A stretch of 36,042 nucleotides of DNA from the NCBI GenBank assembly GCA_964571035.1, contig CAZNBU010000001.1, positions 5,533-41,574 of the forward strand, in the 5' to 3' direction. Shown one piece after another: positions 4,912-29,180 of the stretch. How positions within the stretch are numbered: position 1 is the first letter of the stretch; every line of letters starts with the position of its first letter. Source of the stretch: an uncultured Planctomycetaceae bacterium. Lineage in GTDB: Bacteria > Planctomycetota > UBA8742 > UBA2392. A program made the translations under genes and the position numbers. A model generated the notes under the pieces. That model was not told the DNA's origin. It saw only the letters and a program-made list of their open reading frames with translations, and ran no database searches.

Positions 4912-6897
4912 CTAGCCAATCCACCGCTCGATCCACCCCAGCACTTCGCCGTACCAGTGGATGCTGTTCTGTGGCTTCAGGATCCAGTGGTTCTCGTCGG
5001 GATAGACCACAAGCCGGGCGTCGCGGCCCTGGGCCTTGTACGCGTTGTAGGTCTGCAGCCCCTGGGTGTACGGCACGCGGTAGTCCAGCTCGCCGTGGAT
5101 CACGAGCATCGGCGTCTTGAACCCCTTGCTGTGGCGCATCGGACTGTAGCGGTCGAGCCCCCCAAGGTCGCCCCACGGCTCGCCGCCGAGTGCCTTTTCG
5201 CGCCCCGGCGTTACGTCGCGGGCGTATTGGGCTTGCAGGTCGCTTACGCCGGCGTGGTTTACCAGGCACTTGAAGCGTTCGGTGTTCGCGGCAATCCAGC
5301 TCACCAGGTACCCGCCGTAGCTGCCGCCGGCTGCGGCGAGGCGATCGGGGTCAGCCCACCCGCGCGCCACAAGCGCGTCGGTCGCGCGCATGATGTCGTC
5401 GTACGGCCGCCTGCCCCACTCGCCCATGATGCACTTGGCGTACTCCTGCCCCCACCCGGTGCTGCCGTGGAAGTTGACCATCACGGTCAGCCATCCCCTG
5501 GCCGCCCAAGCCTGCGCGCACCAGCGCCAGTGCCACGAATCGCCAAAGCTGGCGTGCGGGCCGCCGTGGATCAGGTGGACGGTCGGCAGGTTCTTCGGGT
5601 CGGTGACTCCGGGCGGCAGCAGGATCCAGGCCTGCACCTGAGCACCGTCGGCGCCCTCAAAGTACAGCTCGCGCGACTCGCCCAGCGCGACGCCTTTCAG
5701 CACCGGCCCCGAGAAGTCGGTCAGTTGCTGCTCGTCGTTGCCCGCCAGCGCAAAGCTGACGCATTCGGCTGGCTTAGCGAGTGACTGCGCGCAGCACCAC
5801 ACGCGCCCTCCGGCGACTTTGAGGCCCGAGTATGTTCCGCCGCGCGCCAGCAACGCGGGCTCCGCGTTCTTGTCCAGCGGCATCGTGTACAGCGCGCTGG
5901 CGCCGCGATCCTCCGCGCTCAAGACCAAGTTGCGCTCGTCCGCGAACTCCCAATCCGCGGCGCTGCGGTCCCAGCTTTCCGCGAGCACCTGCCGCTCGCC
6001 TGTGGCGCGTTCGTACGCCACGGGCCGAACGCGGTCGGCGTAGAAGGAGTTGTCTTCCTGCACGCCGAACACGATCCACTCGCCGTCCGACGAGTAGCGC
6101 GGGCGGGCGGCGTGGCTGCCCGACCATTCCGTGATCAGCTTCGGCTCGCGCTTCTCGTGACCGGTGGAAATCAGGAACACGCCCGAAATCAGTTGATCGT
6201 ACGGCGCCACCGTGCGGTTCGCCGTGAGTGCGATCTCGCTGCCGTCGGGGCTGATGGCCCAGGTGCCAGCCGCATCCATCAATGGCAGGAAGCGGCGGAA
6301 GTCGGGCGTCAAATCACGCACCGCACCACTTGCGATCTCCAGCGACCACAGGTGCTGCCATGGGTCCTCGCACACCCAGTGGTCCCAAAAGCGGTAGAAG
6401 CGGTCTTCACTGACCTTGGCTTTGACTTTGCTTTCCTTGCGGCGGGCAGCCTCCTCCGCGGTGGCCTCAACGGTGAAGTGCCCGTCGTACAACGCGGAGA
6501 CGAACGCCACGCGCTTGCCGTCAGGGAACCACTGGGGGTCGCTGACACCCAGCGGCATGTCGGTCACCTTGCGCGGCTCGCCGCCGCCCAGCTCCAGCAG
6601 CCACAACTGCGGCTTGTCGCCGCCTGGCCCGGGCGCCTTGCGCACGAACACAACATGCGTGCCGTCGGGGCTGATCGCGGGCTGTGACGCGCTTTCGGTC
6701 TCGCTGGTCAGCGGCTTGAGCGTGTCGTCCCGCTTGATCCAGAGGCGGGTCAGCCCCTCGTTCTTTTCGATGTCGTAGGTAGTAACCGGGATGATGCAGA
6801 ACGAGCCGTCGGGCGCGGGCACCGGGTTGCCCACTCGGGGCAGACGCCAGAGCAGCTCGGGCGTGAAACGATTGTCAGGCACGGCAACCTCCGCCAT
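4912..6897 (-). CDS. S9-family serine peptidase (prolyl oligopeptidase/acylaminoacyl-peptidase type) with an N-terminal TolB-like beta-propeller
   Basis: Catalytic Ser motif 'GGSYGGY', Asp region 'VIHGELDYRVP' and His region 'YPDENHWI'. PD40-like repeats occur upstream ('SPDGTHVVFV', 'FPDGKRVAFVS', 'SPDGSEIALT'). The start is set at ATG 6897 (MAEVAVP...); the ORF track's longer form begins at 6972. Confidence 0.85.
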   Translation of the reverse strand: MAEVAVPDNRFTPELLWRLPRVGNPVPAPDGSFCIIPVTTYDIEKNEGLTRLWIKRDDTLKPLTSETESASQPAISPDGTHVVFVRKAPGPGGDKPQLWLLELGGGEPRKVTDMPLGVSDPQWFPDGKRVAFVSALYDGHFTVEATAEEAARRKESKVKAKVSEDRFYRFWDHWVCEDPWQHLWSLEIASGAVRDLTPDFRRFLPLMDAAGTWAISPDGSEIALTANRTVAPYDQLISGVFLISTGHEKREPKLITEWSGSHAARPRYSSDGEWIVFGVQEDNSFYADRVRPVAYERATGERQVLAESWDRSAADWEFADERNLVLSAEDRGASALYTMPLDKNAEPALLARGGTYSGLKVAGGRVWCCAQSLAKPAECVSFALAGNDEQQLTDFSGPVLKGVALGESRELYFEGADGAQVQAWILLPPGVTDPKNLPTVHLIHGGPHASFGDSWHWRWCAQAWAARGWLTVMVNFHGSTGWGQEYAKCIMGEWGRRPYDDIMRATDALVARGWADPDRLAAAGGSYGGYLVSWIAANTERFKCLVNHAGVSDLQAQYARDVTPGREKALGGEPWGDLGGLDRYSPMRHSKGFKTPMLVIHGELDYRVPYTQGLQTYNAYKAQGRDARLVVYPDENHWILKPQNSIHWYGEVLGWIERWIG

Positions 6898-6990
6898 CAA
6901 AGCTATCGCGTGCGCAGGGTGTGTCCATAACCCGCCGAAAATGCAAAGCCCCCGCGATTGCGGGGGCTGCATGTTTCGGTCGGTGCCGGG

Positions 6991-7860: not shown

Positions 7861-8754
7861 CTACTCGCCAGGCTCGTTGGCCTTGCGGCGGGCTTCGCGA
7901 ATGCGCACTTCGGCGGTGATGGACTTGGCCAGCTCGTCCAGCTTGTCGCGCAGCGACTGGTCACTGGTGTCGTCGCGCATGGCTTCGCACAGGCTGGCGT
8001 CGGATTCCAGAAACGCGCGCGGGTATGCTTCCACCAGCTTGGCAAGCTCGTCGGCAGCATCCTTGCGATCCTGAATCTTCTTGCCGCGCCGAATGCGCTT
8101 GTACTTTAGCGACTTGATGCGCGCCTCCACCATGCCTTGCGACGCAAGTTCCAGGTCCTGCTTGGTCTGCGTGGTCAGCAGCTTGCCGGCTGCTTCGCGG
8201 GCCTGCTGCACCTGCTCGAAGCGCTCCTCGGTGATGATGGACCCGCGGTCGCGCGCGATGAAGATGATCTCCACCACGGCGTTCTGCGCGTTGTATCCGC
8301 CTTGCTTCAGGTGCCGGATCAACAAGTCCCAGAACGCGGTTGTGCGTTCTTCGCCTTCCTTCTGCGCTTCCAGCTTGACGAACTCCTCGCAGACGCGGCG
8401 CTTGTCTTCCGCTTCCGGCTCACCTTCAGGCGTGAGCACCGGCTTGCCGACGAGCGAGTACCCGCCCGACGCGATCGACTTCAGGGCGAACAGCGCGCGA
8501 ATCGCCTGGTCAGCCTTCAGCGTCTTGGGATCGGTGTACAGCAGCGAGACCGAACGCAACTCGGTCTTGCCGTACAGCACCTCCTGCACCGTGATCTCAA
8601 CCTGGAACCCGCCGCTGACACGCGTGCGCTGTGCTGACGCCACGCCCTGCACAATCAGGTCGCACTCAGCCAGAATCACGCGCCCGAAATTGGACTCGTA
8701 TTCCGCCGCGAGCGGCGCGCAGACCAGCAGTGCCAGCAGCAGGGCGCGCATCAT
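7861..8754 (-). CDS. Hypothetical secreted protein, 297 aa
   Basis: Signal-peptide-like N-terminus 'MMRALLLALLVCAPLAAE', with a charged, helical-looking C-terminal half. Its start ATG overlaps the M16 peptidase stop (ATGA at 8754-8751). I recognise no family. Confidence 0.6.
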   Translation of the reverse strand: MMRALLLALLVCAPLAAEYESNFGRVILAECDLIVQGVASAQRTRVSGGFQVEITVQEVLYGKTELRSVSLLYTDPKTLKADQAIRALFALKSIASGGYSLVGKPVLTPEGEPEAEDKRRVCEEFVKLEAQKEGEERTTAFWDLLIRHLKQGGYNAQNAVVEIIFIARDRGSIITEERFEQVQQAREAAGKLLTTQTKQDLELASQGMVEARIKSLKYKRIRRGKKIQDRKDAADELAKLVEAYPRAFLESDASLCEAMRDDTSDQSLRDKLDELAKSITAEVRIREARRKANEPGE

Positions 8755-11544: not shown

Positions 11545-11982
11545 CTAGTCGGTGAAAACCATCCGGTGCGTCGGCAGGTCGCGATCGAGCACGAACTCGA
11601 CTTCCACGCCCTCGCTGCTCGGCGTCGCCGCCACCCAGCGGGTCAGGGGGAGGTACCCGTTCGCCGACACGCGGAACAGCTCAGGCTTGCCGGTGGCCTC
11701 GACCACGATTTCGCGTGTGGGCGTGGTGCCTACCGCAACCCAGATGCCTTCCTTGTTGTACCACTCGACCAGCGCGCCGGGCGGTGTGCTGCGGATGATG
11801 GCTCCGGTCTTGGGAGCGTGGAACTCGTAGAAGTTCTGGGCGGCGCGCTGCGCGGCGAACTCGGCTTCATAGCGCGAGCTCAGCCCCACTTCTCCAACGC
11901 GGCTGGGACGCTCCTGGGAGACGCCGCAACCCGCCACGACTACAAGCAGCGCTAGCAGTGCGCACAGACGAACAATCGTCAT
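11545..11982 (-). CDS. Small lipoprotein with a PEGA-like domain
   Basis: Lipoprotein signal 'MTIVRLCALLALLVVVAGC'. The segment 'IRSTPPGALVEWYNKEGIWVAVGTTPTREIVVEATGKPELFRVSANGYLP' fits the PEGA-domain pattern (S.P.GA.V..dG...G.TP......G.h.v.v...GY). Confidence 0.6.
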   Translation of the reverse strand: MTIVRLCALLALLVVVAGCGVSQERPSRVGEVGLSSRYEAEFAAQRAAQNFYEFHAPKTGAIIRSTPPGALVEWYNKEGIWVAVGTTPTREIVVEATGKPELFRVSANGYLPLTRWVAATPSSEGVEVEFVLDRDLPTHRMVFTD

Positions 11983-12052: not shown

Positions 12053-12727
12053 TCACAGGCCCAGGCGCGGCTTGGCCAACTGCACAATCGCGTCGGCCAC
12101 CTGCTCGGGGGTCATGTCGCTGGTATCGAGCTCAACGGCGTCAGGGGCCTTGCGCAGGGCGCCCACTTCGCGGCTTTGGTCGAGGTGGTCGCGTTTGCTG
12201 ACGTCTTCAAGGATTTCGGGGTAACTGACGTCCATGCCCTTTTCCGCCAGCTCTTTGTGGCGACGGCGGGCGCGCACCTCAGGCGAGGCGTACATGTAGA
12301 CCTTCAGCAGCGCATCCGGAAACACCACTGAGCCCTGGTCGCGGCCCTCGGTGACAAGGTCGCCCTGGCCCGCGATCTCGCGCTGCATTGCGACCAGCTT
12401 GGTGCGGACTTCCACCACGTCGGCTACGTGGTGGATGTTGCGGGTCACTTCCAGCGTGCGGATCTTGCCGGTGACTTCTTCCTTGCCAAGAAACACCTTC
12501 ATCGGCCCGTCGGTCACCAGCTCAACGCGCAGTGCCAGCGACGCGAGCGTGCCGGCGACCGCCTTCGGGTCTTCCAGCCGCACACCGCTGCGCATGCAGT
12601 GCAGGGTGACGGCGCGGTACATCGCGCCGGTATCGAGGTAGCGCACCCCCAGCCGCTGGGCGGTCAGCCGCGCGATGGTGCTTTTGCCGGCGCCTGAAGG
12701 GCCGTCGATTGCGATGACTCGTTTCAT
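12053..12727 (-). CDS. cmk: Cytidylate kinase
   Basis: 'VIAIDGPSGAGKSTIARLTAQRLGVRYLDTGAMYRAVT' (P-loop plus Cmk signature). The start ATG overlaps the upstream gene's stop (ATGA at 12727-12724). Confidence 0.9.
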   Translation of the reverse strand: MKRVIAIDGPSGAGKSTIARLTAQRLGVRYLDTGAMYRAVTLHCMRSGVRLEDPKAVAGTLASLALRVELVTDGPMKVFLGKEEVTGKIRTLEVTRNIHHVADVVEVRTKLVAMQREIAGQGDLVTEGRDQGSVVFPDALLKVYMYASPEVRARRRHKELAEKGMDVSYPEILEDVSKRDHLDQSREVGALRKAPDAVELDTSDMTPEQVADAIVQLAKPRLGL

Positions 12728-15700
12728 TCCTGTCCTGACTGGCCCAGCTTGATGCGGACCCTCATTCGAACGCCTGATACGCGCGTCATCACTCCACGAT
12801 TTTCGGTCGGCACAAGGCTGATGCTGCGCATGCCCTCAACCGTGACGCCGGTGTCGTCCGGCAGCTTGATCGCCGCGCCGTCCAGCTTGGCCGAGCCGTC
12901 CTTGCCCTGCGACAGCCTGCTGCCGCGCAGTTCATACTGATCGCGCTTGAGCAGGATCGGCCCGGTGGCATCCAACGCAATGACATCGCCCGCGCCGTTG
13001 AACGTCACCACGAGGTCGCGCAGCGTCAGGTTCATCGGCGGCGTGCCTACGTTGCGCGCGTAGAAGTCGGCTTCCAGCCCGCCGCGGGCGGCGATGTCGA
13101 TCAGCGCATCCAGCAGCTTCCGCGCGCGGCGCAGCCCCCCTAGCGCTTCTTTCTCGCGCGAATCCTCGTCCTGATCGGGCAGCAGCGGCGTTTCGCCACT
13201 CAGCATGGCGCGCGCGGCGTCGATCGCGTCAAGCGCCTTGCGTGGCTGTTCAAGCTCGGCGGGAACGTTTTCGGCGCCGGTGTCGATGTCGCCGATCGCG
13301 CGCGCCAGCGCGTCGCGGGCCTGCGTTGCAAACTCGATTCGCGCGGCAACCTCCAACTTCTTGGTAACCGCTTCGCCCAACAGGTCGCGCACCACCTTGC
13401 GCGACGTGCGGGGGAACACCTTCTTGGCAACCGCTTTGCCCAGCAGGTCGCGCACTGCCTTCAGCGACTTGCCGGGGAACACCGTATCCACGGGACGCAT
13501 GGTCAACTCAAGGCGGTCGTCGGCTTTCAGGACCCACTCGCCGTCGTACGAAAAGACGCCCGTGCGAACGTACTGGCCGAAGAACTCGGCTGCACGCTCA
13601 AGGTGCAGTTGCGAGCTACCAAGCAGCACGGCTGTGAAGGGCGATTCGCTGCCGTCTTTCCCCTGCGCGCCGGTGATCTCGATGGCGGTGGAGGCAGCGG
13701 CATCCACGCCGTCCATGTCAGAGCGCACGACGGCGTCGCCCTCCAGGCGCAAGACGTTGATCGCGGGCGGTTCTTCACCGTCCGGCCCGGGCGCGAGTGA
13801 ACGGAACGAGCGCATGAAGGCGCGCTCGCCCGAGAGGTGATACAGGTGCTGCACTTCCGGCAACCTGAGCTCGGCAAGGTCGTTCAGCGCGGACGCGCCC
13901 GCGCGCGGCGGCTCAAAGTCGCCGTAGACGAGAAATGCGCGCGGCTGCTCAATCTCAAGGGTGCGGCTTTCTTCTTTGCCCGCATCGCGCAATGACGCGA
14001 TGGTGCATTTGCTTCCGAATTCCACCCACCCTGCATCCGGGCTGGGAAGATCGCGCTCCTCAGGGTTCCGCCGTGGCAGGCGGTTGAGCGTGTCCAGGAA
14101 GAACTGGATGCTGTCACGGTCACGCACGACAAGCCGGCCGGGGCCATCCACTTCCGTGACCAGGACGCCGCCGCTGCCGCGAGTGCGCAGGTTGCCGGCC
14201 AGCAGCAGGTCGTACCCCAGGGTCGCAACCGCGCCCTCCGTGCCTTCGGCGGCAAGATCAGCCGAGCGCAGGATGCCGTCGACCAGCTCGACGGCGACCA
14301 CGCTGCCCGTGAGCGACACCAGGTTGGCGTCGTCGCGCGGCAGCGGGTAGTGCACCAGCGAAACTTGCCCGTGCGCGGCAATGCGCAGATCGCCCGCGCC
14401 ATCGCGCGTCGTCAGCACTCCCAGTTCAAGCGTGTCGCGGGCGTTGACCGTCAGGCGCCCGTCGCGCCGCGGGATTGGAGCGCGCGACCGCAGCCCAAGC
14501 GCGGTGCGAAGCACATCGGCCATCGCGAAGTCGGCGTACACCACCGCCATGGTCTCGGGCCCGTCGACACGCACGTCGCAGCGGTTGCCGATCAGCGTGC
14601 CCTCGGCGCGTGAGCCGGTTACCGTTGCGCGTGAAACCTCCGGCGCTTCGCCCGCGCCGGGCACCGCACCCGGAAACACGCTCAGCAGCGGAGAAAACCC
14701 CTGCCCGACGACGTCGAACGAGTGGCTGTAGGATTTCGCGGTGTCGCGCCATGAGAACAGGCGCACCTGCGTGCCGACAATTTGCCAGTCCGGCACGCCG
14801 TTGCGCAGGCGCTTCACGTTCGCGCCGCCGAACAACTCCACGCGCGCGCTTTGCGGCGAGCCGCCGCCTTCGGTGTTGCGGGCGAACACGTCGACATAGT
14901 CGTCGGCACGCAGGTTCATGGCGATGAGTTCTTTGGTGTCTTCGTCTTCGCCGCGGTCCAGCGTGAGCTCCGGGTAGATGCCCAGCCGAAGCTCGGTGTG
15001 CAGCGGCAACTGCCGGTAGGTCAGCTCGCCGCCACGGCCGCGCATGCCCTTGCCGCGCAGTTGCACGTTGCTGGTGGCGGTGAACTGCACGTTGGTGAGC
15101 ACCGTGATCTGCTCGCCCTTCGGCTTCTTCTCGTCGCGCGGCACGCGCTTTAGATCGCCTTGCAGCTCGATGTACTCGGACGTCACCTGGAAGTCCTGGT
15201 TCTCACTCAGCACCTGCATGCTCGCACGCCGCAGCATGCTGAGCGACGCGCGCTCGCCGCCGTCGGTGAGTTCCAGCGACGCATCGCCGAAGCAGCCCAG
15301 TGTTACGCTGGCGGCTTCGGTCTGCTCGCCTTGGAGGTTCGGCACGGAATCCAGCTTGACGGTCATACTGGCGCCGCGCGTGGACTTGAGTTCCAGCTTC
15401 TTGAGCTTGAACCCGGTTGGCACCAGCTTGCCTGCGGCGTTCGGGGCCTTCACGGTGTCGAGTTCCAGCGACGCGGTGGGGTCCTTGATGCTGGCTGAAA
15501 GTGCCCCGTCGCCGGTCTTGAGAGTAGCGTCGCCCGGCGACGTCAGCTTCAGCGTGAGCGGATCGCCGAGCGAAAGCTCACCCTTGCCCGGCGGGAACGT
15601 CAACGTTCCGCCGTCCGGCAACTCCGTGCTTAACCCGCTGGGGCATGCGAACGCGCCGGTCTTGGGCGAGTAGTTGAACTCTTTCGCGGTGATGGAGTAG

Positions 15701-15975
15701 ACGTCCTCGCCACTGAACACCCGCAGCTTCGCGTCATCCACCTGCACCAGCCCGTCGGCGCGCTTATGCGCACGCGAGCCCTCCAGCACCGCGCGGCGGC
15801 CGTCGTCGTCGAGAAAGATCACGCGGTAGTTCTTGATTTCCAGCCGCTCAACATCCGGCAGGCCCTGCGCCGCAAGCGACGCAGCCGTGAGCGCAAGAAG
15901 CGCAAGCAGGCTACTTCTTAGTGCACTCAAGAGTGAGCCCCGTGATCTTCTCGTACTGCTCGTCCGACAGGCCAT
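12724..15975 (-). CDS. Large (1083 aa) secreted protein of unknown function, Gly/Asp/Leu-rich and probably beta-rich
   Basis: One uninterrupted ORF with GC-rich third-codon positions. The N-terminus 'MACRTSSTRRSRGSLLSALRSSLLALLALTAASLAAQG' looks like a signal peptide with a basic n-region. I recognise no catalytic motif. The 5' end overlaps the cdaR 3' end and the 3' end overlaps the cmk start. An alternative TTG start lies at 15930. Confidence 0.75.
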   Translation of the reverse strand: MACRTSSTRRSRGSLLSALRSSLLALLALTAASLAAQGLPDVERLEIKNYRVIFLDDDGRRAVLEGSRAHKRADGLVQVDDAKLRVFSGEDVYSITAKEFNYSPKTGAFACPSGLSTELPDGGTLTFPPGKGELSLGDPLTLKLTSPGDATLKTGDGALSASIKDPTASLELDTVKAPNAAGKLVPTGFKLKKLELKSTRGASMTVKLDSVPNLQGEQTEAASVTLGCFGDASLELTDGGERASLSMLRRASMQVLSENQDFQVTSEYIELQGDLKRVPRDEKKPKGEQITVLTNVQFTATSNVQLRGKGMRGRGGELTYRQLPLHTELRLGIYPELTLDRGEDEDTKELIAMNLRADDYVDVFARNTEGGGSPQSARVELFGGANVKRLRNGVPDWQIVGTQVRLFSWRDTAKSYSHSFDVVGQGFSPLLSVFPGAVPGAGEAPEVSRATVTGSRAEGTLIGNRCDVRVDGPETMAVVYADFAMADVLRTALGLRSRAPIPRRDGRLTVNARDTLELGVLTTRDGAGDLRIAAHGQVSLVHYPLPRDDANLVSLTGSVVAVELVDGILRSADLAAEGTEGAVATLGYDLLLAGNLRTRGSGGVLVTEVDGPGRLVVRDRDSIQFFLDTLNRLPRRNPEERDLPSPDAGWVEFGSKCTIASLRDAGKEESRTLEIEQPRAFLVYGDFEPPRAGASALNDLAELRLPEVQHLYHLSGERAFMRSFRSLAPGPDGEEPPAINVLRLEGDAVVRSDMDGVDAAASTAIEITGAQGKDGSESPFTAVLLGSSQLHLERAAEFFGQYVRTGVFSYDGEWVLKADDRLELTMRPVDTVFPGKSLKAVRDLLGKAVAKKVFPRTSRKVVRDLLGEAVTKKLEVAARIEFATQARDALARAIGDIDTGAENVPAELEQPRKALDAIDAARAMLSGETPLLPDQDEDSREKEALGGLRRARKLLDALIDIAARGGLEADFYARNVGTPPMNLTLRDLVVTFNGAGDVIALDATGPILLKRDQYELRGSRLSQGKDGSAKLDGAAIKLPDDTGVTVEGMRSISLVPTENRGVMTRVSGVRMRVRIKLGQSGQE
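13357..13455 (-). repeat. In-frame 63-bp tandem duplication inside the 1083-aa gene
   Basis: The 36-nt cores 13357-13392 and 13420-13455 match at 33 of 36 positions with a 63-bp period. They encode '(A/V)VRDLLG(K/E)AV(A/T)KK' twice. Confidence 0.8.
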
Positions 15976-17245
15976 CGCGGACGTGCTTGGCCGTCAGCCT
16001 GTCGTACCGGATCCAGAGGGAATGCCACCACTCCGGCTGCTTGAGCGTGGCAATGGTGGTCTTGTTCTGGTCATTAAGGTCGTCGATCGGCGGGTTGAAG
16101 TCGAAGTCCTCCGGCTTCAACGCGCCGAGGTCCACGATCACCCGGACGTTTTCTTCGTTGAAGCGATCCTGCTGGCCCTTTGCGACAAGCAGCTCGACTT
16201 TCAGCTCCTTCTGGATGCCGCCGGTGGGTCGCACACTGTAGTCCTGAAGCCAGGCCGGAAGCAGAACCTGAACCGGAAAGGTCTGCTGAAGCGGAACGGT
16301 GTCCTGCTCTTTCGTGAAGTGAAACTCAAGGTTGACGTGGGTGACCGGCTCCGTGCCCGGCTCGCCGTCGGCGGGCTTGGTCACTTGCAGCACGGTGATC
16401 TCATCCCGCACCGCGAACGCCGCGGATACGGTGAGCTTGGCCTCCTGTGAAAGCAGCTGCTCGATCGTCTTGTTCTCGTTGGTCCTGCGGATGTTGATCG
16501 TCTCGCCGACATCCAGCCTTTGCAGCGCAAGCTTGGCTTCGGTGGCTGTTCCGCCCAGTTGTTCAATCCGGCTTAGCGGGCCGCGCACCTTCAGCTCGGT
16601 GCCGGGAACCACGCTGATCTTGTGCGCGTAGCCCGGTACCTTGCCGACGATGCCGCCGCTTGCGCTGAGATCCACAACCGCGGGCCGGGTTACATAGGGC
16701 TCCAGCTCGACCACTACCTTCTCGCCGGTAACCGCGACCACGTCCAATTCCGCCGGTTGCTTGCTGTCGTCAGAGACACGAATGTCGTCGCGCCCGATCT
16801 CAAGGGTGATGGGCCGGCCGGCTGCGGCGGCCCCTGCGGGTATGTCCGATGAGGCGATGCGGCAAACGTACATGTAGCGGCCGGGGTTCTCGCGCAGTTC
16901 GTTGGCGAAGTCGTTCAACCTGCGCGCGGGCCCGGACACCTCCACCGTAATCGGGATTGAGTTGTCGGCGGCGGGACCGCGACCGGAGCGGTCCCCGGGC
17001 GGCATGATGCGCCATTGCCCACGAAGTTCGTCCGCCAGCTCAAACCGCAGGCGGGAGTAGTCTTCAAGCCGCTGCGTCTCCGTCACCTGGCCGCGCGCGA
17101 TCCACCACACCAGCACTGAAAGCACGATCAGCACCACATGCACGCTGATCCCCAGCGGCAAAGCCTTTGGTTTGCGGATGGTGTCCGTGCGCCGGGAAAC
17201 CCCGGAGGCCCGCGCCCCGCTGATTGTCGTCGCGCCGCTGTTCAT
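15911..17245 (-). CDS. cdaR: YbbR-domain protein, CdaR-like regulator of diadenylate cyclase
   Basis: It has an N-terminal TM anchor ('LGISVHVVLIVLSVLVWWIA') followed by about 400 aa of repetitive beta-rich sequence, as in YbbR/CdaR. It sits immediately downstream of cdaA with an ATGA overlap (17245-17242), the conserved cdaA-cdaR arrangement. The call rests mainly on position and architecture. Confidence 0.7.
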   Translation of the reverse strand: MNSGATTISGARASGVSRRTDTIRKPKALPLGISVHVVLIVLSVLVWWIARGQVTETQRLEDYSRLRFELADELRGQWRIMPPGDRSGRGPAADNSIPITVEVSGPARRLNDFANELRENPGRYMYVCRIASSDIPAGAAAAGRPITLEIGRDDIRVSDDSKQPAELDVVAVTGEKVVVELEPYVTRPAVVDLSASGGIVGKVPGYAHKISVVPGTELKVRGPLSRIEQLGGTATEAKLALQRLDVGETINIRRTNENKTIEQLLSQEAKLTVSAAFAVRDEITVLQVTKPADGEPGTEPVTHVNLEFHFTKEQDTVPLQQTFPVQVLLPAWLQDYSVRPTGGIQKELKVELLVAKGQQDRFNEENVRVIVDLGALKPEDFDFNPPIDDLNDQNKTTIATLKQPEWWHSLWIRYDRLTAKHVRDGLSDEQYEKITGLTLECTKK

Positions 17246-18033
17246 GTCTGTGCCGCCTGGGTGTTGCCGACCGCCGCCTGCAGCGCGTCGCCAAGGTTCT
17301 CGCGCAGGTAGCGTTCCAACTGATCGCGGGAAAGGTCCTGCTGCAATTCGCCTTTCAAGGCGACGCTTACCTTGCCCGTTTCTTCACTTACTACGATTAC
17401 CAGCGCGTCCGTCTCCTCGCTCAACCCGATACCCGCCCTGTGGCGCGTGCCGAGCCGCTTGCTGATATCCGGGTTCTCGGTCAGCGGGAACAGGCAACCT
17501 GCGGCCACGACGCGCGCGCCACGAATCACGATCGCGCCATCGTGCAGCGGGTTGCCGGGGTAGAACACACTGTCGATCAACTCTGGGGTCAGCAGCGCGT
17601 CAAGCTCCACACCGCGCTCAATGTAGTTGCGCAGGCCGACGCCGCGCTCAATGGCCATTAGTGCGCCGGTTTTGGCGCGCGCGAGACGAAACACCGTCGC
17701 CACCAGCCGCGGTACCAGGTCTTCGCGCCGCGCGACAAGCCGCAGAAAAAGCCGGTTCTGGCCAAGGCGCGAGAGGCCGCGCCGCAACTCCGGCTGAAAG
17801 ATGACGAGCACGCCGATGAAAAGGTAGTCAACCACCTTTTCCATCAGGCTTTTGATGCGGAAGAGTTGCAGGGCATCGGCAACCAGGTAGATGCCGATCA
17901 GCAGCGCCGTAAAGATGATCGCCACGCCGCGCAGGGCGCTGTCGCCGGTGCTGCCCTTCACGAACTTGTAGACAAGCAGCAGGAACAAGTAGATGAGGAG
18001 AATCTCGACGCCGTAGATGAGATACTCGGTCAT
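17242..18033 (-). CDS. cdaA: Diadenylate cyclase CdaA (membrane-anchored DAC/DisA_N domain)
   Basis: Three N-terminal hydrophobic helices are followed by the DAC domain 'TGALMAIERG...FYPGNPLHDGAIVIRG.RVVAAGCLFPLTE...LGTRHRAGIGLSEETDALVIVVSEETGKVS'. The start is set at ATG 18033 (MTEYLIYGV...), which overlaps the folP stop (ATGA). The ORF-track start is 18087. Confidence 0.9.
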   Translation of the reverse strand: MTEYLIYGVEILLIYLFLLLVYKFVKGSTGDSALRGVAIIFTALLIGIYLVADALQLFRIKSLMEKVVDYLFIGVLVIFQPELRRGLSRLGQNRLFLRLVARREDLVPRLVATVFRLARAKTGALMAIERGVGLRNYIERGVELDALLTPELIDSVFYPGNPLHDGAIVIRGARVVAAGCLFPLTENPDISKRLGTRHRAGIGLSEETDALVIVVSEETGKVSVALKGELQQDLSRDQLERYLRENLGDALQAAVGNTQAAQT

Positions 18034-18887
18034 CCGTCCCCCTGGGGCTGCATCGCGCGCGCAACAGTGAGCGCACGGCGCATCCACCCGACTTCATGCA
18101 CCCGCAGCACCGCCGCGGCATGCAGCGCGCCCATCAGCCCGGCTGCCAGGCTTTCGGGCTCGCGGTCCTGCACCGGTGCGCCCGTCAGGCTGCCCAGCGT
18201 TGATTTTCTGGAGACGCCGAGCAGGACAGGCAAGCCTAGAGCGGTCAGTTCACCAAGCCTTGCAACCAGCTCCAGGTTGTGCCGCGGAAGTTTACCAAAC
18301 CCGAAACCGGGGTCTATCCAGAGGTGTTCACGCGGCACGCCCGCGTTCTCGGCCGCCTTTGCGCGCGCAGCCAGATAGTCCCGCACCTCCACGACGACGT
18401 CGTCGTACTCCGGGTGGTCCTGCATGGTTCGCGGCGTGCCGACCATGTGCATGAGCACCAGCAGGCACTCGCGCTCGGCGCAGACACGCAGGATGCGGGG
18501 GTCGATTGTGCCGGCTGTGACGTCGTTGACGATGTCGGCGCCGGCATCCAGGGCGGCCGATGCGACCTGGGACTTCATGGTGTCGATGCTGATGGCGACG
18601 TTCGGCGCAAGGGCGCGCACTTCGCGGATCACGGGCACGACGCGGGCGATTTCTTCCTGTGTATCAACCGGCGCGGCGCCCGGGCGGGTGGACTCGCCGC
18701 CGATGTCGATGATGTCAGCCCCGTCGCGCACCAGCTTCATAGCGTGCTGCACAGCACTGCCCGCGCCCGCATGCTTCCCGCCGTCGCTGAAGCTGTCGGG
18801 GGTAACGTTGACGATGCCCATCAGCAGCGGCCACGGCGCTTGAAGCGGGCGTTCTGGTGTGTGCGAGAAATGGTCCGGAAGCGGCAT
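18030..18887 (-). CDS. folP: Dihydropteroate synthase
   Basis: 'LMGIVNVTPDSFSDGG', 'DIIDIGGESTRPGA', 'ISIDT' and 'ADIVNDV' are canonical pterin-binding DHPS motifs. Confidence 0.9.
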   Translation of the reverse strand: MPLPDHFSHTPERPLQAPWPLLMGIVNVTPDSFSDGGKHAGAGSAVQHAMKLVRDGADIIDIGGESTRPGAAPVDTQEEIARVVPVIREVRALAPNVAISIDTMKSQVASAALDAGADIVNDVTAGTIDPRILRVCAERECLLVLMHMVGTPRTMQDHPEYDDVVVEVRDYLAARAKAAENAGVPREHLWIDPGFGFGKLPRHNLELVARLGELTALGLPVLLGVSRKSTLGSLTGAPVQDREPESLAAGLMGALHAAAVLRVHEVGWMRRALTVARAMQPQGDG

Positions 18888-18924: not shown

Positions 18925-19305
18925 CTACGCCGAGCCGCCGTCCGCCTTGCAGGCGGCGACGAGCATGCGGGTTACTTCTTTCTGCCGTACGTCGGCGGCT
19001 TTGCGCAGCTTGATGTGGCGCAGGTCTTTGCCGGTGCCTTCGAGCAGGCCGTCGGGATCTTCGAGGTGCGCGCCGCGCCAGAATTCGAGGTTCACGTATT
19101 TGCGCATCACGAGCAGGCTGACGATGTTTCCGTTGCCGGTCCAGCAAGGCCATCCCCACTTCACCGTCTGCTGTGCGTGCGGGATGTGCTTTTCGATCGC
19201 CTGGACCGCGGCGTTGACGATTGGGCCCAGTGGGCGGCCGAGGCGCCTGGCGTAGTCGCGGGCGGGTTCGTCCTTTGCTGCCTTGGTGGATTTGCCGGCG
19301 CCCAT
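18925..19305 (-). CDS. Small DUF1801/YdhG-like protein (126 aa)
   Basis: Start at ATG 19305 (MGAGKSTKAAKDEP...). 'VKWGWPCWTGNGNIVSLLVMRKYVNLEFWRG' resembles the DUF1801 core. The upstream part of the 241-aa ORF-track version is Arg/Pro-rich and overlaps the ftsH 3' end. Confidence 0.55.
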   Translation of the reverse strand: MGAGKSTKAAKDEPARDYARRLGRPLGPIVNAAVQAIEKHIPHAQQTVKWGWPCWTGNGNIVSLLVMRKYVNLEFWRGAHLEDPDGLLEGTGKDLRHIKLRKAADVRQKEVTRMLVAACKADGGSA

Positions 19306-19376
19306 GAACGGTCTTATGCAATTGGATGACTCTGCCGGGTCGGCCCCTCGCTTGCGCTTCGGGCTCCTGCTCTCCG

Positions 19377-21428
19377 CTACGCGGTTCCTGGTTGCTCGGC
19401 TGGGCCGGCGAACCCTGGCGACTCGCCCGACTTGTGGCGCTCGCGGGCTTCTTCCATGGCGCGGTGCTTGGCGGCGGCCTGCTCGCGCTTGGTCTCTTCG
19501 GCGGCTTGCCGGCGGTGCGCCTCCAGATCGCCGCTCTTGAGGATGATCTCGAGGTCGGCGTGGTCCAGCGTTTCGTACTTCAGCAGCGCTTCGGCAATTG
19601 TGCGCAGCTTCTCGCGGTTTTCGTTGATCAGCGTGACCGTCTTCTCCCACGCTTCATCGATCAGCCGCCGCATTTCCTCGTCGATCGCCTTGCGCGTTTC
19701 ATCGCTGTGGTCACTTGGCCGCATGACCGCCTGGCCCATATACGTCTGGTCTTCGTCGCCGGAGTAATTCAGGAACCCGATGCGCGGGCTCATCCCCCAC
19801 TCCGTGACCATCTTGCGCGTAAGGTTGGTGGCTTGCTGGATGTCGCTCGCGGCGCCGGCATCGATCTCGCCGAACTCCACGTGCTCGGCCGCGCGCCCGC
19901 CCATGAACACCATCAGCATCTGCTCGGCGCGCGACTTGGGCATGCCGTAGCGATCTTTCTCTGGCAAGCTCATGGTCGCGCCCAGCGCCCGGCCGCGCGG
20001 GATAATCGTTACCTTGTGGACCTTGTCGGTCTTTGGCGTCAGTTCCTGCACAAGGGCGTGACCGGCTTCGTGATATGCGGTCAGCTTCTTTTCTTCCTCT
20101 TCCATGACGCGCGAGCGCTTCTGGCGGCCGAAGGCGACGCGGTCGCGCGCTTCAAGCATGCACTCGCGGTCGATCTCGTCGAGGTTGCGCAGCACGGCGA
20201 TCAGCGCGGCTTCGTTGACGAGGTTCATGATGTCCGCGCCGCTGAACCCGGGGATCAGCTTGGCGACCTCATGCGCGTCCACCGCCGGGCCCGCCTTGAC
20301 CTTCTTGAGGTGCACGCGAAGGATTTCCTCGCGGCCCTTAAGGTCAGGCAGATCGATGAACACCTGGCGATCGAAGCGGCCGGGACGCAGCAACGCGTTG
20401 TCAAGCACGTCCGGGCGGTTGGTGGCTGCCAGAATGATCACGCCTTCGCTGCTGCCGATGCCGTCCATTTCGACCAGCAGGGCGTTGAGTGTCTGTTCGC
20501 GCTCGTCGTGCCCGCCGCCCACGCCGGTGCCGCGACGGCGGCCCACGGCGTCGATCTCGTCAATGAACACAATGCACGGCGCGCTTTCGCGGGCGGTGCG
20601 GAACAGGTCGCGCACGCGCGAGGCGCCCACGCCCACGAACATCTCTACGAAATCGCTGCCGCTGATGCTGAAGAACGGGCGGTCCGCTTCGCCGGCAATC
20701 GCCTTGGCCAGAAGTGTCTTGCCGCAACCCGGCGGGCCGATCAACAGCACGCCCTTGGGGATCTTGGCGCCAAGCCGCGAGAAGCGTTGCGGGTTGCGCA
20801 GGAACTCCACGATCTCGGAGACTTCTTCCTTGGCTTCGTCCGCGCCCGCGACGTCGGTGAACGTGACGGTGACGTCTTCCTTGTTGAACATCTTGGCGCG
20901 CGACTTGCCGAATGCCATCACGCCGCCGCCCAGCGGGCCGCCCGCGCGGCGGAAGAAGAAGAACCACACCAGCGCGATGATGATGATGAACGGGACGATG
21001 TTCTTCAGGAACCACCCGAGATTATCGTTCATCTCCTCGGGCTTGATCTTGACGTTGGCGTGGATGACGCGCTCTTTGCCTTCCTTCTCGGCGTTGACCC
21101 ACTTGTCCCAGGTCGCCTTGTCCACCTCGGCGGTGAACTGCTGCGGCTTGTCCTCCGGCGCGTTGGCGTACTTGCCGGTGATGTGGATGACGTTGCCGCT
21201 TTCGGGGAACTTGGGGTTGAGCGACTCAATCTCGTTGGCGCGCAGCTTGGCTTCCAGCTCGTTGGACGCGAGCTTTTCGTTGCTGCCGTTCATCTCAACG
21301 ACAGCCAGCAGCACCAGCAGCATCACCATCGCGCCGAGCGCCAGCACGAACAGGGGCAGGCCCTTGGGACGCTTGCCCGGCGGGCCGGGGCGGCGCTGTT
21401 CTTCAGGCTTATTGTCTTCGATCTTCAT
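19377..21428 (-). CDS. ftsH: ATP-dependent zinc metalloprotease FtsH
   Basis: Walker A '[18 protein letters not shown]', Walker B 'IVFIDEIDA', SRH '[19 protein letters not shown]' and zinc site 'HEAGHA'. The start is set at ATG 21428 (MKIEDNK...) with AAGGAAG just upstream. The ORF-track start is 21479. Confidence 0.95.
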
Positions 21429-21522
21429 CGACTTCCTTATGCCGCGGTGCCCGGCAACCCTGCCGGCCGCCCGCGTCACCCCTGAAACGCACTACTGTAC
21501 CACGGGTGTTCCCTTATGTGCG

Positions 21523-22065
21523 CTATTTCTCAGGCGCCCATTCCGTATCGGCAGCCACGTCCAGAATCTCGCGCGATAGCTCCCGCCACAGCCGATCCAG
21601 CCCCGCTTCGCGCGAATCGCCGATGCCCGGTGTGTAGTTAATCGAAACCGTCACCGGCCGGTTCAAACGTTTCCCCGGCAGGGCGTCGCCGATGGCCTGC
21701 ACCTGCGCCTTGGCAAGCAGCTGGATTTCGGCGCGCTCACCGGTGTCCAGGTCTTCAACCAACGTGGGTTCCGTGAAGTATGTCAGCGACACTTTCAGGC
21801 GGACGTCCGCGGCGCCATCTCTCAAGATCAAACGACGGTCCGTGGCGATTTCATCCTTCAGACGGCGCGTCAGGTCGTACTCGAGGTTCGGGCGGTGCGG
21901 GATGGTGCGGTTCTCGACTGTGTCCAGCGAAACGGTTCGCGGCGGCTGTGAATCCAGCGACGCCCCCCACCGGTAACCGCACCCGCTCAAACACATCACC
22001 AACAGGGCCGCCAGCACACCCAACCCGGGTTGCATCGCTACGCGAATCCAGTTGCGAGTCAGCAT
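21523..22065 (-). CDS. lptE: LptE-like LPS-assembly lipoprotein (tentative)
   Basis: Lipobox followed by 'LSGCGYRWG', compared with E. coli LptE 'TAGCGWHLR'. The segment '[29 protein letters not shown]' and the size (180 aa) fit LptE-like proteins. The start is 2 nt after the upstream gene's stop. Confidence 0.5.
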
Positions 22066-22067
22066 GA

Positions 22068-23258
22068 TTACCCCGCCTGGGGTCCGGGTTGCAGCGCCTT
22101 CTTGCGTGCCACCAGCTTCTCTTCGGTTTCTTCGGCAAGGGCGATGTAGTAGTCGCGCGCAGCCGACTCACCTAGGCGCGAGTAGGTATCGGCAGCGTTG
22201 AGGTGCCGCTCGACAAACACGCCGTACACCTTCTCGAGCAGCAGGATGAACTGCGAGTGCAGCGACTCGGGGATGTTGGGGTTTTCGAAGCGATACAGCT
22301 CGTACTCACCAAGCAACTCGTCGGCGCGCTCGTAGTACACGCGGTCGTAGATGTACCCCTTGCTGGTCGCCATGGTCTGGTCGATCTGCCACATCAGGGC
22401 GTAGGGGCGCCAGCGGGTGTCGGTATCGCGCAGTCCGGCGCCGCGGTACAGCAGGCCGAACGTGTTGGCGGCAATCGGCGCCGCACCGTTGCGGCGTTGT
22501 GCATGCCCCATGATGAAGAGCGTGTCGGCCTTAACGCTCGGTGGCGGGTTAATTGACAGCATGTCCTCGGCGGTGAAGATCGTGCGGTTGAAGTCCTGCG
22601 CCGCGTACATCAGCCAGCACACGTCACGGCCAAGGTTGCCGACATCGCGTCGATAGCGCGAAAGCTGGATTGCCGGCAGGTAGAAGTTCGCCAGCGTCTC
22701 CACGTCGCGCTGCGCGGCTTCAAGCCGGCCGCTGCGGTAGATCGCATAGGCGTCCGGCTCAAGCATTTCAATGAACTCCTGCACCGGCAGCGCGCGAATC
22801 TGCGTTGCGACCTCGCGGGTCTGCGCGGTGCCGGCCATCAGGGCGCGCAGGTCGTCATCGTGGTTCGGCGCGAGATAGACGAACATCCAGCGATCGAGCG
22901 AAAGGGCCGTGGAAAGGCGGCTCTCGGCGCCGGCGCGGCCGGCTTCAAACTGTGCGCGGATACGCAGCAGAATTGCATCGACGGCCCGCGAGCCTTCCGG
23001 GTACGTCTGTGTCAGCGCCAGCGAAAACGCGATGCACTCATCCCAGCGGCGCTCATCGAAGGCCGCCTCGGCGGAGTTGAACAGCGTCTGCTCGGTCTGG
23101 TTTGTCGCGGCGTTCTCGCGTGTGATGCCGACGCCGGGCTCGTAAACCAATCCGCCGGCGCCGGGCGGCCCGACATACATCGGGTCGGGCGCCTGCTTGC
23201 ACCCAGCCAGCAGCGCCACGAGACACAGGGATGCCAGAGGCAGGTAGGTTCGCGTCAT
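22068..23258 (-). CDS. Helical-repeat (TPR-like) lipoprotein, function unknown (BamD/YbgF-like N-terminal repeat?)
   Basis: Start set at ATG 23258 (MTRTYLPLASLCLVALLAGC; lipobox LAGC). 'FNSAEAAFDERRWDECIAFSLALTQTYPEGSRAVDAILLRIRAQFEAG' resembles a BamD/YbgF-type TPR. The ORF-track start is 23372. Confidence 0.5.
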   Translation of the reverse strand: MTRTYLPLASLCLVALLAGCKQAPDPMYVGPPGAGGLVYEPGVGITRENAATNQTEQTLFNSAEAAFDERRWDECIAFSLALTQTYPEGSRAVDAILLRIRAQFEAGRAGAESRLSTALSLDRWMFVYLAPNHDDDLRALMAGTAQTREVATQIRALPVQEFIEMLEPDAYAIYRSGRLEAAQRDVETLANFYLPAIQLSRYRRDVGNLGRDVCWLMYAAQDFNRTIFTAEDMLSINPPPSVKADTLFIMGHAQRRNGAAPIAANTFGLLYRGAGLRDTDTRWRPYALMWQIDQTMATSKGYIYDRVYYERADELLGEYELYRFENPNIPESLHSQFILLLEKVYGVFVERHLNAADTYSRLGESAARDYYIALAEETEEKLVARKKALQPGPQAG

Positions 23259-23272
23259 CTTCTTCACATCGA

Positions 23273-24019
23273 TCAAGCAGCCCCCGCAACTTCCAGCGCC
23301 TGTACTGTTTTCAGCCGTCTCCCGCCCTGCATTGCTACAAGCCAGGCGAGAAGCGTAAAGGCGCCGGCCCATGCGTCAACGGCGATTCCGTCGCCCCGCT
23401 CCTGCCTGGCCAAAGTCGTCAGCGCGCCGAGGACCGCCGGGGACACACGCACGAGATCGCTGCGACCGTCGGTGTACGGCGGCGCGAGCAGTCCCATCTC
23501 CCGCAGGCTGAAGTTAACCCCCACCTTGCCCGAAGGCTCCTGCCCGGACGCAACGCACTGCGTGACCACCGGCTCAACGCCGAGCGCACACAGCAGGCCC
23601 CAGGCGAACGTGGCCTGTACGCGCGAGGGGTCTGTGCCGGCCAGCGCGCGCAACGCCCGCACAGCCAGCAGCATCACCGCCGGGCCGTCCTGCGGGCCGA
23701 CTTCGATGGACAGCAGCAACTCGCGAATGCTCTCGATGGCCCGGAACTGGGCGTAGTCGCGCCGCGTGCCCGGAAAGAAATCCACCAACTCAGCCTGCGC
23801 GAGAATGCTCAGCGTGCCGCGGCGCGAGCGGTCGTACAGCGCGACGTTGTAAAGGCTCATCAGGTCCAGCGGGCCGCCAATGCTTGATTTCTCGCGCTTG
23901 GCGCCCTTGGCGATGGCGCCGACTGTGCCGGCTTTGTCGGTCAGCAGGGTGAGGATCTGGCTGGTCTCGCTGAAGTCCACTTTGCGAAGGCACAGCGCGG
24001 TGGTGGTGATCAGGGCCAT
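23273..24019 (-). CDS. recO: DNA repair protein RecO
   Basis: The N-terminal OB-fold pattern 'ALCLRKVDFSETSQILTLLTDKAGTVGAIAKGAKREKSSIGGPLDLMSLYNVALY' and the size (248 aa) are typical of RecO. Confidence 0.78.
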   Translation of the reverse strand: MALITTTALCLRKVDFSETSQILTLLTDKAGTVGAIAKGAKREKSSIGGPLDLMSLYNVALYDRSRRGTLSILAQAELVDFFPGTRRDYAQFRAIESIRELLLSIEVGPQDGPAVMLLAVRALRALAGTDPSRVQATFAWGLLCALGVEPVVTQCVASGQEPSGKVGVNFSLREMGLLAPPYTDGRSDLVRVSPAVLGALTTLARQERGDGIAVDAWAGAFTLLAWLVAMQGGRRLKTVQALEVAGAA

Positions 24020-27773: not shown

Positions 27774-29180
27774 GTGAAGGCAACTTTCGTTCTGTCCGCT
27801 TTGCTGTTGCTCGTGGCGTGCACCTCAACCGCGCCGGGCGACGATGAAACTTCACGCAAAGAGTTCGTGGCTGCGGAAACAGCCAGCGGCGCCCACGAGC
27901 GCGAAGCCAAACCGGCTGCCAATCAACCGCTCAGCGCCCAGGAACAATCCGACGCGGCGCTGCTGATCGCCAAGCTCGAACAGACCGCCGACCAGGCCGA
28001 GCGTGACACGCTGTTGCAGCAGTTGATCGGGCTGGGCCCACGCTACCTGCCGTACTTCCGCAAGGTGAACCGCGACGCGGTGCTGCTGGACATGATGTAC
28101 GTGATCCGCAAGATTGAAGGCGACAGGCAGCCGCCCGAAAGCGTAAGCGCCGAGAAGCCTGAGCGCGAAAGCACTGGCGGGGAGAGCCCAAAGGGCGCCG
28201 ACGCCGCAACCACCACCGACTACAACAAGGAAGAAGTCGAAAAGTACTGGGCGGCGCTGTTGAAAGAGGCCCAGCGCCTGCTGGAGATCGGCCGCTACGA
28301 CGCCGCCGTAAGAACAGCCGAAGCCGCCATCATCCTGCGGCCCGAAAGCCGCTGGCGCAGCGAGTTCGACGCCATCATCGTGCGCGCCCGCAGCGAAGGC
28401 CAGTCGGAGTTGCTGATTGCGGGCACCATGTCGATCGATCCGCCCTACGTGCGGTATGCCGAAGCAAAGCAAGGTGCGCCGTTCGCTGCGCCGTTGCAGG
28501 TGCATTGCTATCTCAAGAACGTTTCCGCGCAGCAGATCACGCTGCGGCTGAACGAGGGCGATGAAAGGCGCAGCCTGCTGCAACTGCTGGTGCGCTACGA
28601 GCAGACCGACTACCTCGGGCACGCCATGAGCCAGCAGGACAACGTCAGCCTGCCGATTGATGCCGGCGCGGCAGTCACGCTGCGGCCCGGCGAAAGCTAC
28701 GAGTTGATCGTGCCGCTGGCTGGGTTGACCTCGCTGGACGCAGATGCGCCGGTCAAGAACGCGCTGGGCAAGGCGCAGATTGACGCCTCGCTGCGCGTGT
28801 ACGGCGCGCTTGACGGCGACGGAAATCCGCTGATCCTGCGCCCGGTACGCTTCTCGCGACGCAGCGTGCTGATCTTCCCCGCCGAGTTCGAACTGGACGA
28901 AGCCAGGGACAAGCCGCTCACCTACATCCGCGAGTGCATCGACGAGGAACGCGCGCAGGACCTGTTTCTCGCGGCACACCTGGTCGAAGCAAAGGCACTG
29001 CGCAGCGCCGGCGACACTCTGACCGGCAACGACTTCGCCGACAGCCCGCTGGCGATGCAGCGCGCCCGGCTTCGCGCCCTCACGACGTTGTTCGGCGTCG
29101 GGCCGACCTGGGACATCCGCCAGTGGCGCGAATGGTGGAACTCCAACCGCCTGCGCGACCACGCAAAACTTAACGACTGA
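27774..29180 (+). CDS. Hypothetical lipoprotein, 468 aa
   Basis: GTG start. Signal and lipobox 'MKATFVLSALLLLVAC'. The N-terminal half looks helical and the C-terminal half beta-rich. I recognise no family. Confidence 0.6.
   Translation: MKATFVLSALLLLVACTSTAPGDDETSRKEFVAAETASGAHEREAKPAANQPLSAQEQSDAALLIAKLEQTADQAERDTLLQQLIGLGPRYLPYFRKVNRDAVLLDMMYVIRKIEGDRQPPESVSAEKPERESTGGESPKGADAATTTDYNKEEVEKYWAALLKEAQRLLEIGRYDAAVRTAEAAIILRPESRWRSEFDAIIVRARSEGQSELLIAGTMSIDPPYVRYAEAKQGAPFAAPLQVHCYLKNVSAQQITLRLNEGDERRSLLQLLVRYEQTDYLGHAMSQQDNVSLPIDAGAAVTLRPGESYELIVPLAGLTSLDADAPVKNALGKAQIDASLRVYGALDGDGNPLILRPVRFSRRSVLIFPAEFELDEARDKPLTYIRECIDEERAQDLFLAAHLVEAKALRSAGDTLTGNDFADSPLAMQRARLRALTTLFGVGPTWDIRQWREWWNSNRLRDHAKLND

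Follow-up and report, generated by a model that had tools for sequence, protein, structure and literature searches.

A giant exported protein with a predicted Lpt-type fold follows cdaR in the diadenylate cyclase operon of a sub-lineage of Planctomycetota

The diadenylate cyclase operon of an uncultured Planctomycetaceae bacterium encodes, directly after a long and divergent form of CdaR, a giant exported protein with a predicted fold of the lipopolysaccharide (LPS) transport (Lpt) type. The operon lies on a 36,042-nucleotide stretch of contig CAZNBU010000001.1 (assembly GCA_964571035.1), called the window below, and the giant exported protein gene at 12724-15975 on its minus strand is named BIG. 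The order cdaA, long cdaR, BIG and cmk is retained in unrelated genomic surroundings, and the protein matches no known family by sequence. The reading favored here, which is put forward tentatively and with limited confidence, is that BIG is a periplasmic Lpt-fold protein that partners the ectodomain of CdaR. Feature coordinates are collected in Table 1.

Within the clade whose CdaA proteins are 69-99% identical, a block of ~20 kb is collinear in every locus. It runs CorC, RecO, BamD-like protein, LptE, FtsH, (DUF1801), FolP, CdaA, CdaR, BIG, Cmk, a lipoprotein of 145 amino acids (aa), an M16 peptidase, and a 297-aa protein. Collinearity of this extent inside one clade carries little information on BIG specifically. 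In lineages with CdaA 57-61% identical (loci L020, L021, and L026), the flanks are entirely different, and the order of cdaA, long cdaR, a ~1,000-aa giant, and cmk is kept. L020 is flanked by an RR-HDOD gene upstream and a sulfotransferase gene downstream, and L026 by an MFS gene upstream and by cytochrome c and YidC genes downstream. Together with the window type, these loci place the four-gene module in four flanking contexts. Profile comparisons identify the three giants as distant BIG homologues. The L021 protein matches the A3 profile (hhalign 99%, E 6e-18), that of L026 matches the A3 hidden Markov model (HMM) at 1.7e-14, and that of L020 is linked to the L021 giant (phmmer 9e-25) and shows collinear weak profile matches. 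The A4 long-CdaR HMM matches the CdaR proteins of these loci at 1e-44 to 1e-58, including cases in which BIG can hardly be aligned, and all BIG lineages carry this one distinct long-CdaR subfamily.

An earlier note on this DNA, made from the sequence alone, had proposed a link between the giant and cdaA-cdaR, and a census of homologues does not refute it. All BIG homologues with upstream sequence stand directly after a cdaA/cdaR-like pair, the three lineages with unrelated flanks included, and none of the homologues found lies away from a cdaR-like gene. The module also survives a very large shift in base composition, from ~64% G+C in the window to 42% in L020, where the giant can hardly be aligned and the long CdaR is still matched at 2e-58.

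In Firmicutes, the c-di-AMP (cyclic di-adenosine monophosphate) synthase operon has the order cdaA-cdaR-glmM. The view that BIG fills a "glmM slot" gains support from other Planctomycetota with CdaA 46-49% identical (L023 and L025), in which the order is YfiO/BamD-LptE-(FtsH)-FolP-CdaA-YbbR-GlmM and the GlmM proteins match all four PGM_PMM domains of Pfam. From this CdaA-YbbR-GlmM order, the slot is a genuine arrangement in the phylum, and in one sub-lineage the gene order puts the BIG-cmk pair there. The two arrangements share cdaA followed by a YbbR-domain gene in overlapping frames, and the same BamD-LptE-FtsH-FolP block upstream. They differ in the third gene, which in the window is an exported giant followed by cmk instead of a cytoplasmic phosphoglucosamine mutase, and in the longer and more divergent CdaR. 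BIG as an analogue of GlmM was rejected outright, as the protein has no PGM_PMM match in Pfam and is exported. The position after cdaA or ybbR varies further in the phylum. A Brocadia locus (L024) keeps the block but encodes PdxJ downstream of YbbR. In L027 (8001-11212), a gene for a 762-aa Ser/Thr kinase-TPR protein stands after cdaA in place of a YbbR gene, which puts another putative regulator at this position. The pair formed by a BamD/YfiO-like gene and lptE directly behind it closely precedes (ftsH-)folP-cdaA-ybbR across distant Planctomycetota including Brocadia (window, L023, L024, and L025). This conserved order suggests an old supra-operon that joins outer-membrane biogenesis and c-di-AMP genes.

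The reading frame of BIG is real and measures 1083 aa at its longest, as the open reading frame (ORF) listing of the window gives it, and Pfam and NCBIfam matches confirm the neighbors assigned to it earlier, namely ftsH, the DUF1801 gene, folP, and cdaA. It is taken as a genuine gene because the full-length ORF is conserved down to ~26% identity in an alignment of 22 sequences. The ATG of the long ORF, at 15975, sits 65 nucleotides (nt) within the upstream gene, whose stop codon occupies 15911-15913. The NCBI gene call for the identical protein P0001 starts at a TTG at 15930 and gives 1068 aa, and this TTG is probably the true start. The tight coupling to both neighbors described in the earlier note is retained with this start, which leaves a 20-nt overlap with the cdaR-like gene, while the BIG stop and the cmk start share an ATGA. 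At most homologous loci, the cdaR-BIG junction is likewise an overlap of 16-23 nt with a TTG start or is of the ATGA type; at one locus, L001, a gap of ~200 nt is called between the two genes. The real genes around BIG are on the minus strand. A consensus scan of the operon for promoters and terminators returned fewer sites than shuffled sequences did.

The protein also appears to carry the signal peptide claimed for it. Nearly all full-length members begin with a short basic n-region and a hydrophobic core of 12-17 residues, followed by a conserved A|Q-x-LPD motif, and no second hydrophobic segment that recurs across the family was found. By inspection of the listed N-termini, and with no formal test of sorting signals, no consistent lipobox cysteine was noticed. 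These features point to a soluble exported protein with a probably cleavable Sec signal peptide.

The gene upstream of BIG was labeled cdaR in the earlier note, and the label is probably right, although the window copy has no Pfam YbbR match itself. It is retained because 3 of 17 long-CdaR family members match PF07949 YbbR (best E 0.0015), because the family profile aligns with the Pfam-YbbR positional orthologues of other Planctomycetota (hhalign 89.7%, E 1.9e-6, 279 columns), and because the protein has a predicted N-terminal membrane segment and its gene lies directly 3' of cdaA with overlapping frames. The long CdaR proteins of BIG lineages measure 405-446 aa, against 333-367 aa for the YbbR proteins of loci that lack BIG. 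Their family is as narrow as that of BIG, with 14 proteins, none of them annotated.

Sequence searches delimit BIG as a small and isolated family. A word-indexed search of 5.8 billion proteins returned 8 relatives, and an exhaustive profile search of 1.84 billion cluster representatives returned 26 proteins, all of them BIG family members in full length or as fragments, with no partial match to any other family. A scan of GTDB species genomes gave 12 BIG loci, all in metagenome-assembled genomes (MAGs) of Planctomycetota, with submitter labels that include one Phycisphaerales and one Planctomycetaceae. The carriers identified by name so far are uncultured MAGs without exception. Records that contain BIG include JADJRK010000001.1 (4.1 Mb), JAOSKM010000001.1 (2.45 Mb), BOKI01000001.1, and JADKGX010000002.1, and relatives with the GlmM slot include GCA_016200105.1 and GCA_964486315.1. 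The absence of a recognizable motif stated in the earlier note extends to the family: the window protein has no Pfam or NCBIfam match, and 22 members have no Pfam match even at E<=10, including the OstA/LptA/LptC models PF03968, PF13100, and PF06835 and the LptD, AsmA, TamB, and YhdP models. The family profile compared by hhalign with single E. coli LptA, LptC, and LptD proteins gave nothing (probability <=0.2% for LptA and LptC). In phmmer and profile searches of PDB sequences with whole BIG and with its N- and C-terminal modules, nothing relevant appeared, and the terminal modules retrieved no Lpt protein. The marginal matches were to the CPAP G-box beta-meander (E 0.021) and, by phmmer, to a "Fiber" chain (E 0.018). 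Segment-against-segment hhalign gave weak signals of internal repeats at most (best P 3e-4 to 8e-4, probability <=40%), and no repeat architecture is claimed. In the literature searches made, no description of BIG was found, nor any paper that treats a giant Lpt-like partner or c-di-AMP signaling in Planctomycetota. The family is new at the sequence level, its fold modules are of a known class, and the operon represents a new form of the well-known cdaA-cdaR-glmM module.

At the level of fold, the loose likeness to LptC and LptA suggested in the earlier note is upheld, although every sequence method fails to recover it. The AlphaFold2 model of whole BIG, built from 8 sequences, has a mean predicted local distance difference test score (pLDDT) of 78.6 and a predicted template modeling score (pTM) of 0.60. 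An N-terminal helix (14-36) is followed by ~60 beta-strands at 47-830, among which are three short helices, then by a helical region at ~830-955; the last module, of 12 strands, covers 957-1075. Modeled by itself, the stretch 165-835 scores higher (pLDDT 82.2, pTM 0.75). Foldseek against the PDB gives domain-sized matches to LptA (2r19, 2r1a), with template modeling scores normalized to the target (TMt) of 0.47-0.57 and probability 0.99-1.0 (2r19_A, 0.56 and 1.00), and a match of the whole model to LptC (6mit_C, TMt 0.55, probability 1.00), its output giving no BIG module as the source of each match. The LptA match persists with the core alone (TMt 0.56, probability 1.0). The predicted jellyroll modules of BIG thus superpose on LptA and LptC (2r19 and 6mit chain C) at TMt 0.5-0.57 and probability 1.0, and the models appear to contain the beta-jellyroll of ~15-16 antiparallel strands that defines the OstA/LptA/LptC fold. 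We read them as an elongated open beta-sheet protein with more than one LptA-type jellyroll module and no closed barrel.

BIG resembles LptA further in that LptA is soluble and has a cleavable signal peptide, as the sequence suggests for BIG. It is ~7 times longer than LptA or LptC, however, contains a helical insert, shows no similarity to them by Pfam, HMMER, or hhalign, and is linked to cdaA-cdaR-cmk and not to lptB, lptC, or kdsC. A second group of known proteins, the AsmA-like and bridge-like proteins (TamB, YhdP, BLTP1/LPD-3, and VPS13 chorein-N), shares with BIG a similar size (~1,000 aa) and an extended all-beta build, and BIG has weak fold matches to LPD-3 and chorein-N. AsmA-like proteins have an N-terminal inner-membrane anchor, whereas BIG has a short h-region of 12-17 residues and an apparent A|Q cleavage site. 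It has no AsmA, DUF490, YhdP, or DUF748 matches in Pfam, and no TamB or YhdP structure is among the top 50 PDB matches in Foldseek. At 15024-16804, ~6 kb downstream of cdaA-ybbR-glmM, the GlmM-slot genome L023 encodes a 1189-aa protein of the canonical AsmA-like type (DUF748 and YhdP); Pfam therefore does detect bridge-like lipid transporters in Planctomycetota.

BIG could be an autonomous periplasmic lipid-transfer bridge with no regulatory link to c-di-AMP, present in the operon as part of an envelope-biogenesis block (BamD, LptE, FtsH, CdaA-CdaR, and formerly GlmM). This is the main rival to the favored reading and only slightly less likely. The domain-level fold matches are to LptA and LptC alone (probability 1.0, TMt ~0.55), and the best whole-chain matches, LptD (E 4e-8), ApoB100, the BLTP1 homologue LPD-3 (9cap_A, TM-score normalized to the query 0.21, probability 0.6), and a viral chorein-N protein (E 4e-4), are all lipid-groove proteins, those to ApoB100 and LPD-3 being weaker. 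The LptA-like cleavable signal peptide fits such a role, as do the BamD-like gene and the lptE-like gene five to six genes upstream, the latter already noted and backed by Pfam. Cmk regenerates cytidine di- and triphosphate (CDP and CTP), which are required for CMP-Kdo and CDP-diacylglycerol synthesis. On the other side stand the empty searches with OstA, LptC, LptD, AsmA, TamB, and YhdP models and with E. coli Lpt proteins. Moreover, lptB, lptC, lptF, and lptG are in neither the window nor any other locus examined, lptE alone being present upstream, and the BamD/LptE/FtsH context is gone in L020, L021, and L026, with cdaA-cdaR still attached. Evolutionary rate also speaks against the proposal. 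Within the clade, BIG and long CdaR evolve faster than any other gene of the block, with mean Kimura distances of 1.10 and 1.10; the remaining genes range over 0.28-0.76. An essential transporter is not usually the fastest gene of its block.

That BIG is the LptD of this lineage, the outer-membrane LPS translocon partnering the upstream LptE, is highly improbable. LptD does lead the whole-chain Foldseek matches (E 4e-8 for the whole model, 4e-4 for the core), and an lptE gene is nearby. The TM-scores are 0.09-0.19 over 760-990 aligned columns, however, so the chains do not superpose, and those to barrels of the TonB-dependent, SusC, and OprC types are 0.05-0.16, consistent with a model that seems to have no closed barrel. 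LptD has a 26-strand C-terminal barrel (PF04453) plugged by LptE, whereas in BIG a helical insert of 125 residues parts the core from a C-terminal jellyroll-like module. No PF04453 or PF03968 match was obtained, and inspection of the C-termini, which are variable and charged, revealed no beta-signal. LptD orthology was rejected on TM-scores and architecture.

A further alternative sees in BIG a non-lipid structural protein of the envelope, such as a periplasmic spacer, a fiber, or a surface adhesin, with a beta-sheet that is superficially Lpt-like. The top match in a viral structure library is a phage tail fiber (E 5e-6), phmmer gives the weak match to a "Fiber" chain, and the global TM-score of the BIG models to every known structure is <=0.21. 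Fast evolution, together with a variable helical insert that recently underwent a 63-bp duplication, is typical of surface and structural proteins. Apart from the signal peptide, no stretch of the protein is less conserved than this insert, and it contains many alignment gaps. Its duplication adds 21 aa (VRDLLGKAVAKK... / VRDLLGEAVTKK...) as an insertion that the alignment places in the window protein and in none of the homologues, and it is recent because even the 77%-identical homologue P0002 lacks it. Against this stand the specificity of the LptA and LptC matches (probability 1.0), compared with a TM-score of 0.14 for the tail fiber, and the absence of adhesin, beta-helix, or autotransporter folds among the top PDB matches. 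By inspection, with no formal test, no sorting signal was noticed beyond Sec export. Taken together, a purely structural role appears quite unlikely.

In the preferred reading, BIG partners CdaR, a protein whose YbbR ectodomain has no known input in any organism (PMC9259658). The four-gene order in four contexts, the frame overlap with cdaR, the exclusive co-occurrence with a single long-CdaR subfamily, and a predicted position in the compartment of CdaR's sensory domains all suggest that BIG is functionally tied to CdaA-CdaR. We infer a periplasmic location for BIG and, beyond it, possible contact with CdaR, lipid binding, and an effect on c-di-AMP. BIG would be a soluble periplasmic giant made mostly of Lpt (OstA/LptA/LptC) jellyroll-type beta modules, interrupted by the poorly conserved helical insert and ending in a conserved module that resembles a jellyroll. 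Its gene would share a transcript with that of the lineage-specific long CdaR, probably with translational coupling as well. As an extracytoplasmic third component of the CdaA-CdaR diadenylate cyclase module, it would contact the periplasmic YbbR ectodomain, plausibly via edge-strand pairing. Lpt jellyrolls join one another in this manner (LptC-LptA-LptD), which makes such contact with the beta-rich YbbR domains plausible. Through the membrane helix of CdaR, BIG may then tune CdaA according to an envelope cue, for example how far lipid or LPS fills its groove, or whether it touches the outer membrane. GlmM is a known CdaA regulator, a cytoplasmic inhibitor, and a periplasmic input would thus occupy the genomic position that other Planctomycetota give to it.

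Several observations weigh against a partnership with CdaR. An Lpt-type fold points to lipid transport before it points to signaling, and the fold itself comes from AlphaFold2 with 8 sequences. Linkage to cmk is as constant as linkage to cdaR, which means that gene order can be conserved with no complex behind it. Between lineages, BIG evolves much faster than long CdaR, unlike what is predicted for a tight co-evolving interface. A mirror-tree analysis of 10 taxa gave a residual BIG-CdaR correlation of r = -0.04 after the housekeeping background was regressed out; with so few taxa the test is weak and uninformative, and it is counted as no support. The BIG-FtsH value of 0.79 in the same 10 taxa looks like a saturation artefact. 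The CdaR-partner and lipid-bridge proposals are not mutually exclusive. A combined form is considered unlikely; in it, BIG would be an envelope-spanning Lpt-type lipid conduit or ruler read directly by the YbbR ectodomain, the supply of outer-membrane lipid or LPS would set c-di-AMP synthesis, and the gene for this periplasmic input would take the place of glmM.

Table 1. Positions of BIG, its predicted parts, and the neighboring genes in the window
Feature	Position	Strand	Remarks
BIG, giant exported protein	12724..15975	-	1083-aa ORF, probable TTG start 15930 (1068 aa); homologues full length
Sec-type signal peptide, residues 16-36 of long ORF	15868..15930	-	probable cleavage ...LAA|QGLPD; model helix 14-36
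N-terminal short-strand beta module, residues 47-164	15484..15837	-	11 short strands in model; candidate LptC/LptA-like jellyroll
Beta-rich core, residues 165-835	13471..15483	-	separate model; long strands (12-20 residues) at 167-423, short-strand modules and three short helices at 447-830
Helical insert, residues ~830-955	13111..13488	-	model helices 839-954; poorly conserved
In-frame 63-bp tandem duplication inside helical insert	13357..13483	-	Tandem Repeats Finder: 2.0 copies, 85% match
C-terminal short-strand beta module, residues 957-1075	12751..13107	-	12 strands in model; well conserved (0.46-0.48 over residues 991-1050); candidate LptA-like jellyroll
Long divergent CdaR (YbbR-domain) homologue, 444 aa	15911..17245	-	predicted N-terminal membrane segment (from sequence)
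cdaA, membrane diadenylate cyclase	17242..18087	-	PF02457 2e-40; TIGR00159 2e-66, above cut-off
cmk, cytidylate kinase	12053..12727	-	PF02224 4e-68; last gene of four-gene module, ATGA overlap with BIG
folP	18030..18887	-	PF00809 2.5e-85
ftsH	19377..21479	-	PF01434 and PF00004
DUF1801 gene	within 18925-19650	-	Pfam; domain = residues 145-232 of 241-aa ORF
lptE-like lipoprotein	21523..22065	-	PF04390 7.5e-9, 36.7 bits vs cut-off 23
BamD-like TPR protein	22068..23372	-	weak TIGR03302 (4.5e-7) and TPR_18; positional orthologues in L023, L024, and L025 match PF13525 YfiO

The remainder of the block shows some variation. Only some of the relatives have the DUF1801 gene; the ORF listed for it in the window overlaps the 3' end of ftsH, and its homologues measure ~124 aa. 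L002 has an extra gene of 549 aa between the DUF1801 gene and folP (5339-6988). Farther upstream of the BamD-like gene in the window are recO and a CorC/CNNM gene, beyond which a divergently oriented glmS (GATase and two SIS domains) occupies 25870-27696 on the plus strand, as it likewise does in L001. The product of glmS acts one step before GlmM in the pathway, and glmS alone of the two genes is found within the window. Downstream of glmS, a pair of long ORFs of ~1.4 kb, at 27774-29180 (+) and 27852-29162 (-), has no Pfam match on either strand. At the other end of the block, the M16 peptidase gene is flanked by genes for the 145-aa putative lipoprotein (11545-11982, minus strand) and the 297-aa signal-peptide protein (7861-8754, minus strand); neither protein has a Pfam match, and both genes keep their place relative to the block in every close relative.

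BIG defines a sequence-orphan family with a predicted Lpt-type fold. As an exported giant that always comes directly after the long CdaR, in overlapping frames or closely abutting, it is a genetically fixed candidate partner for CdaR. Should BIG carry lipid, it would be a periplasmic bridge of a new kind, found in a phylum with a still debated envelope. Should it act in signaling, it would provide a link between outer-membrane biogenesis and a nucleotide second messenger.

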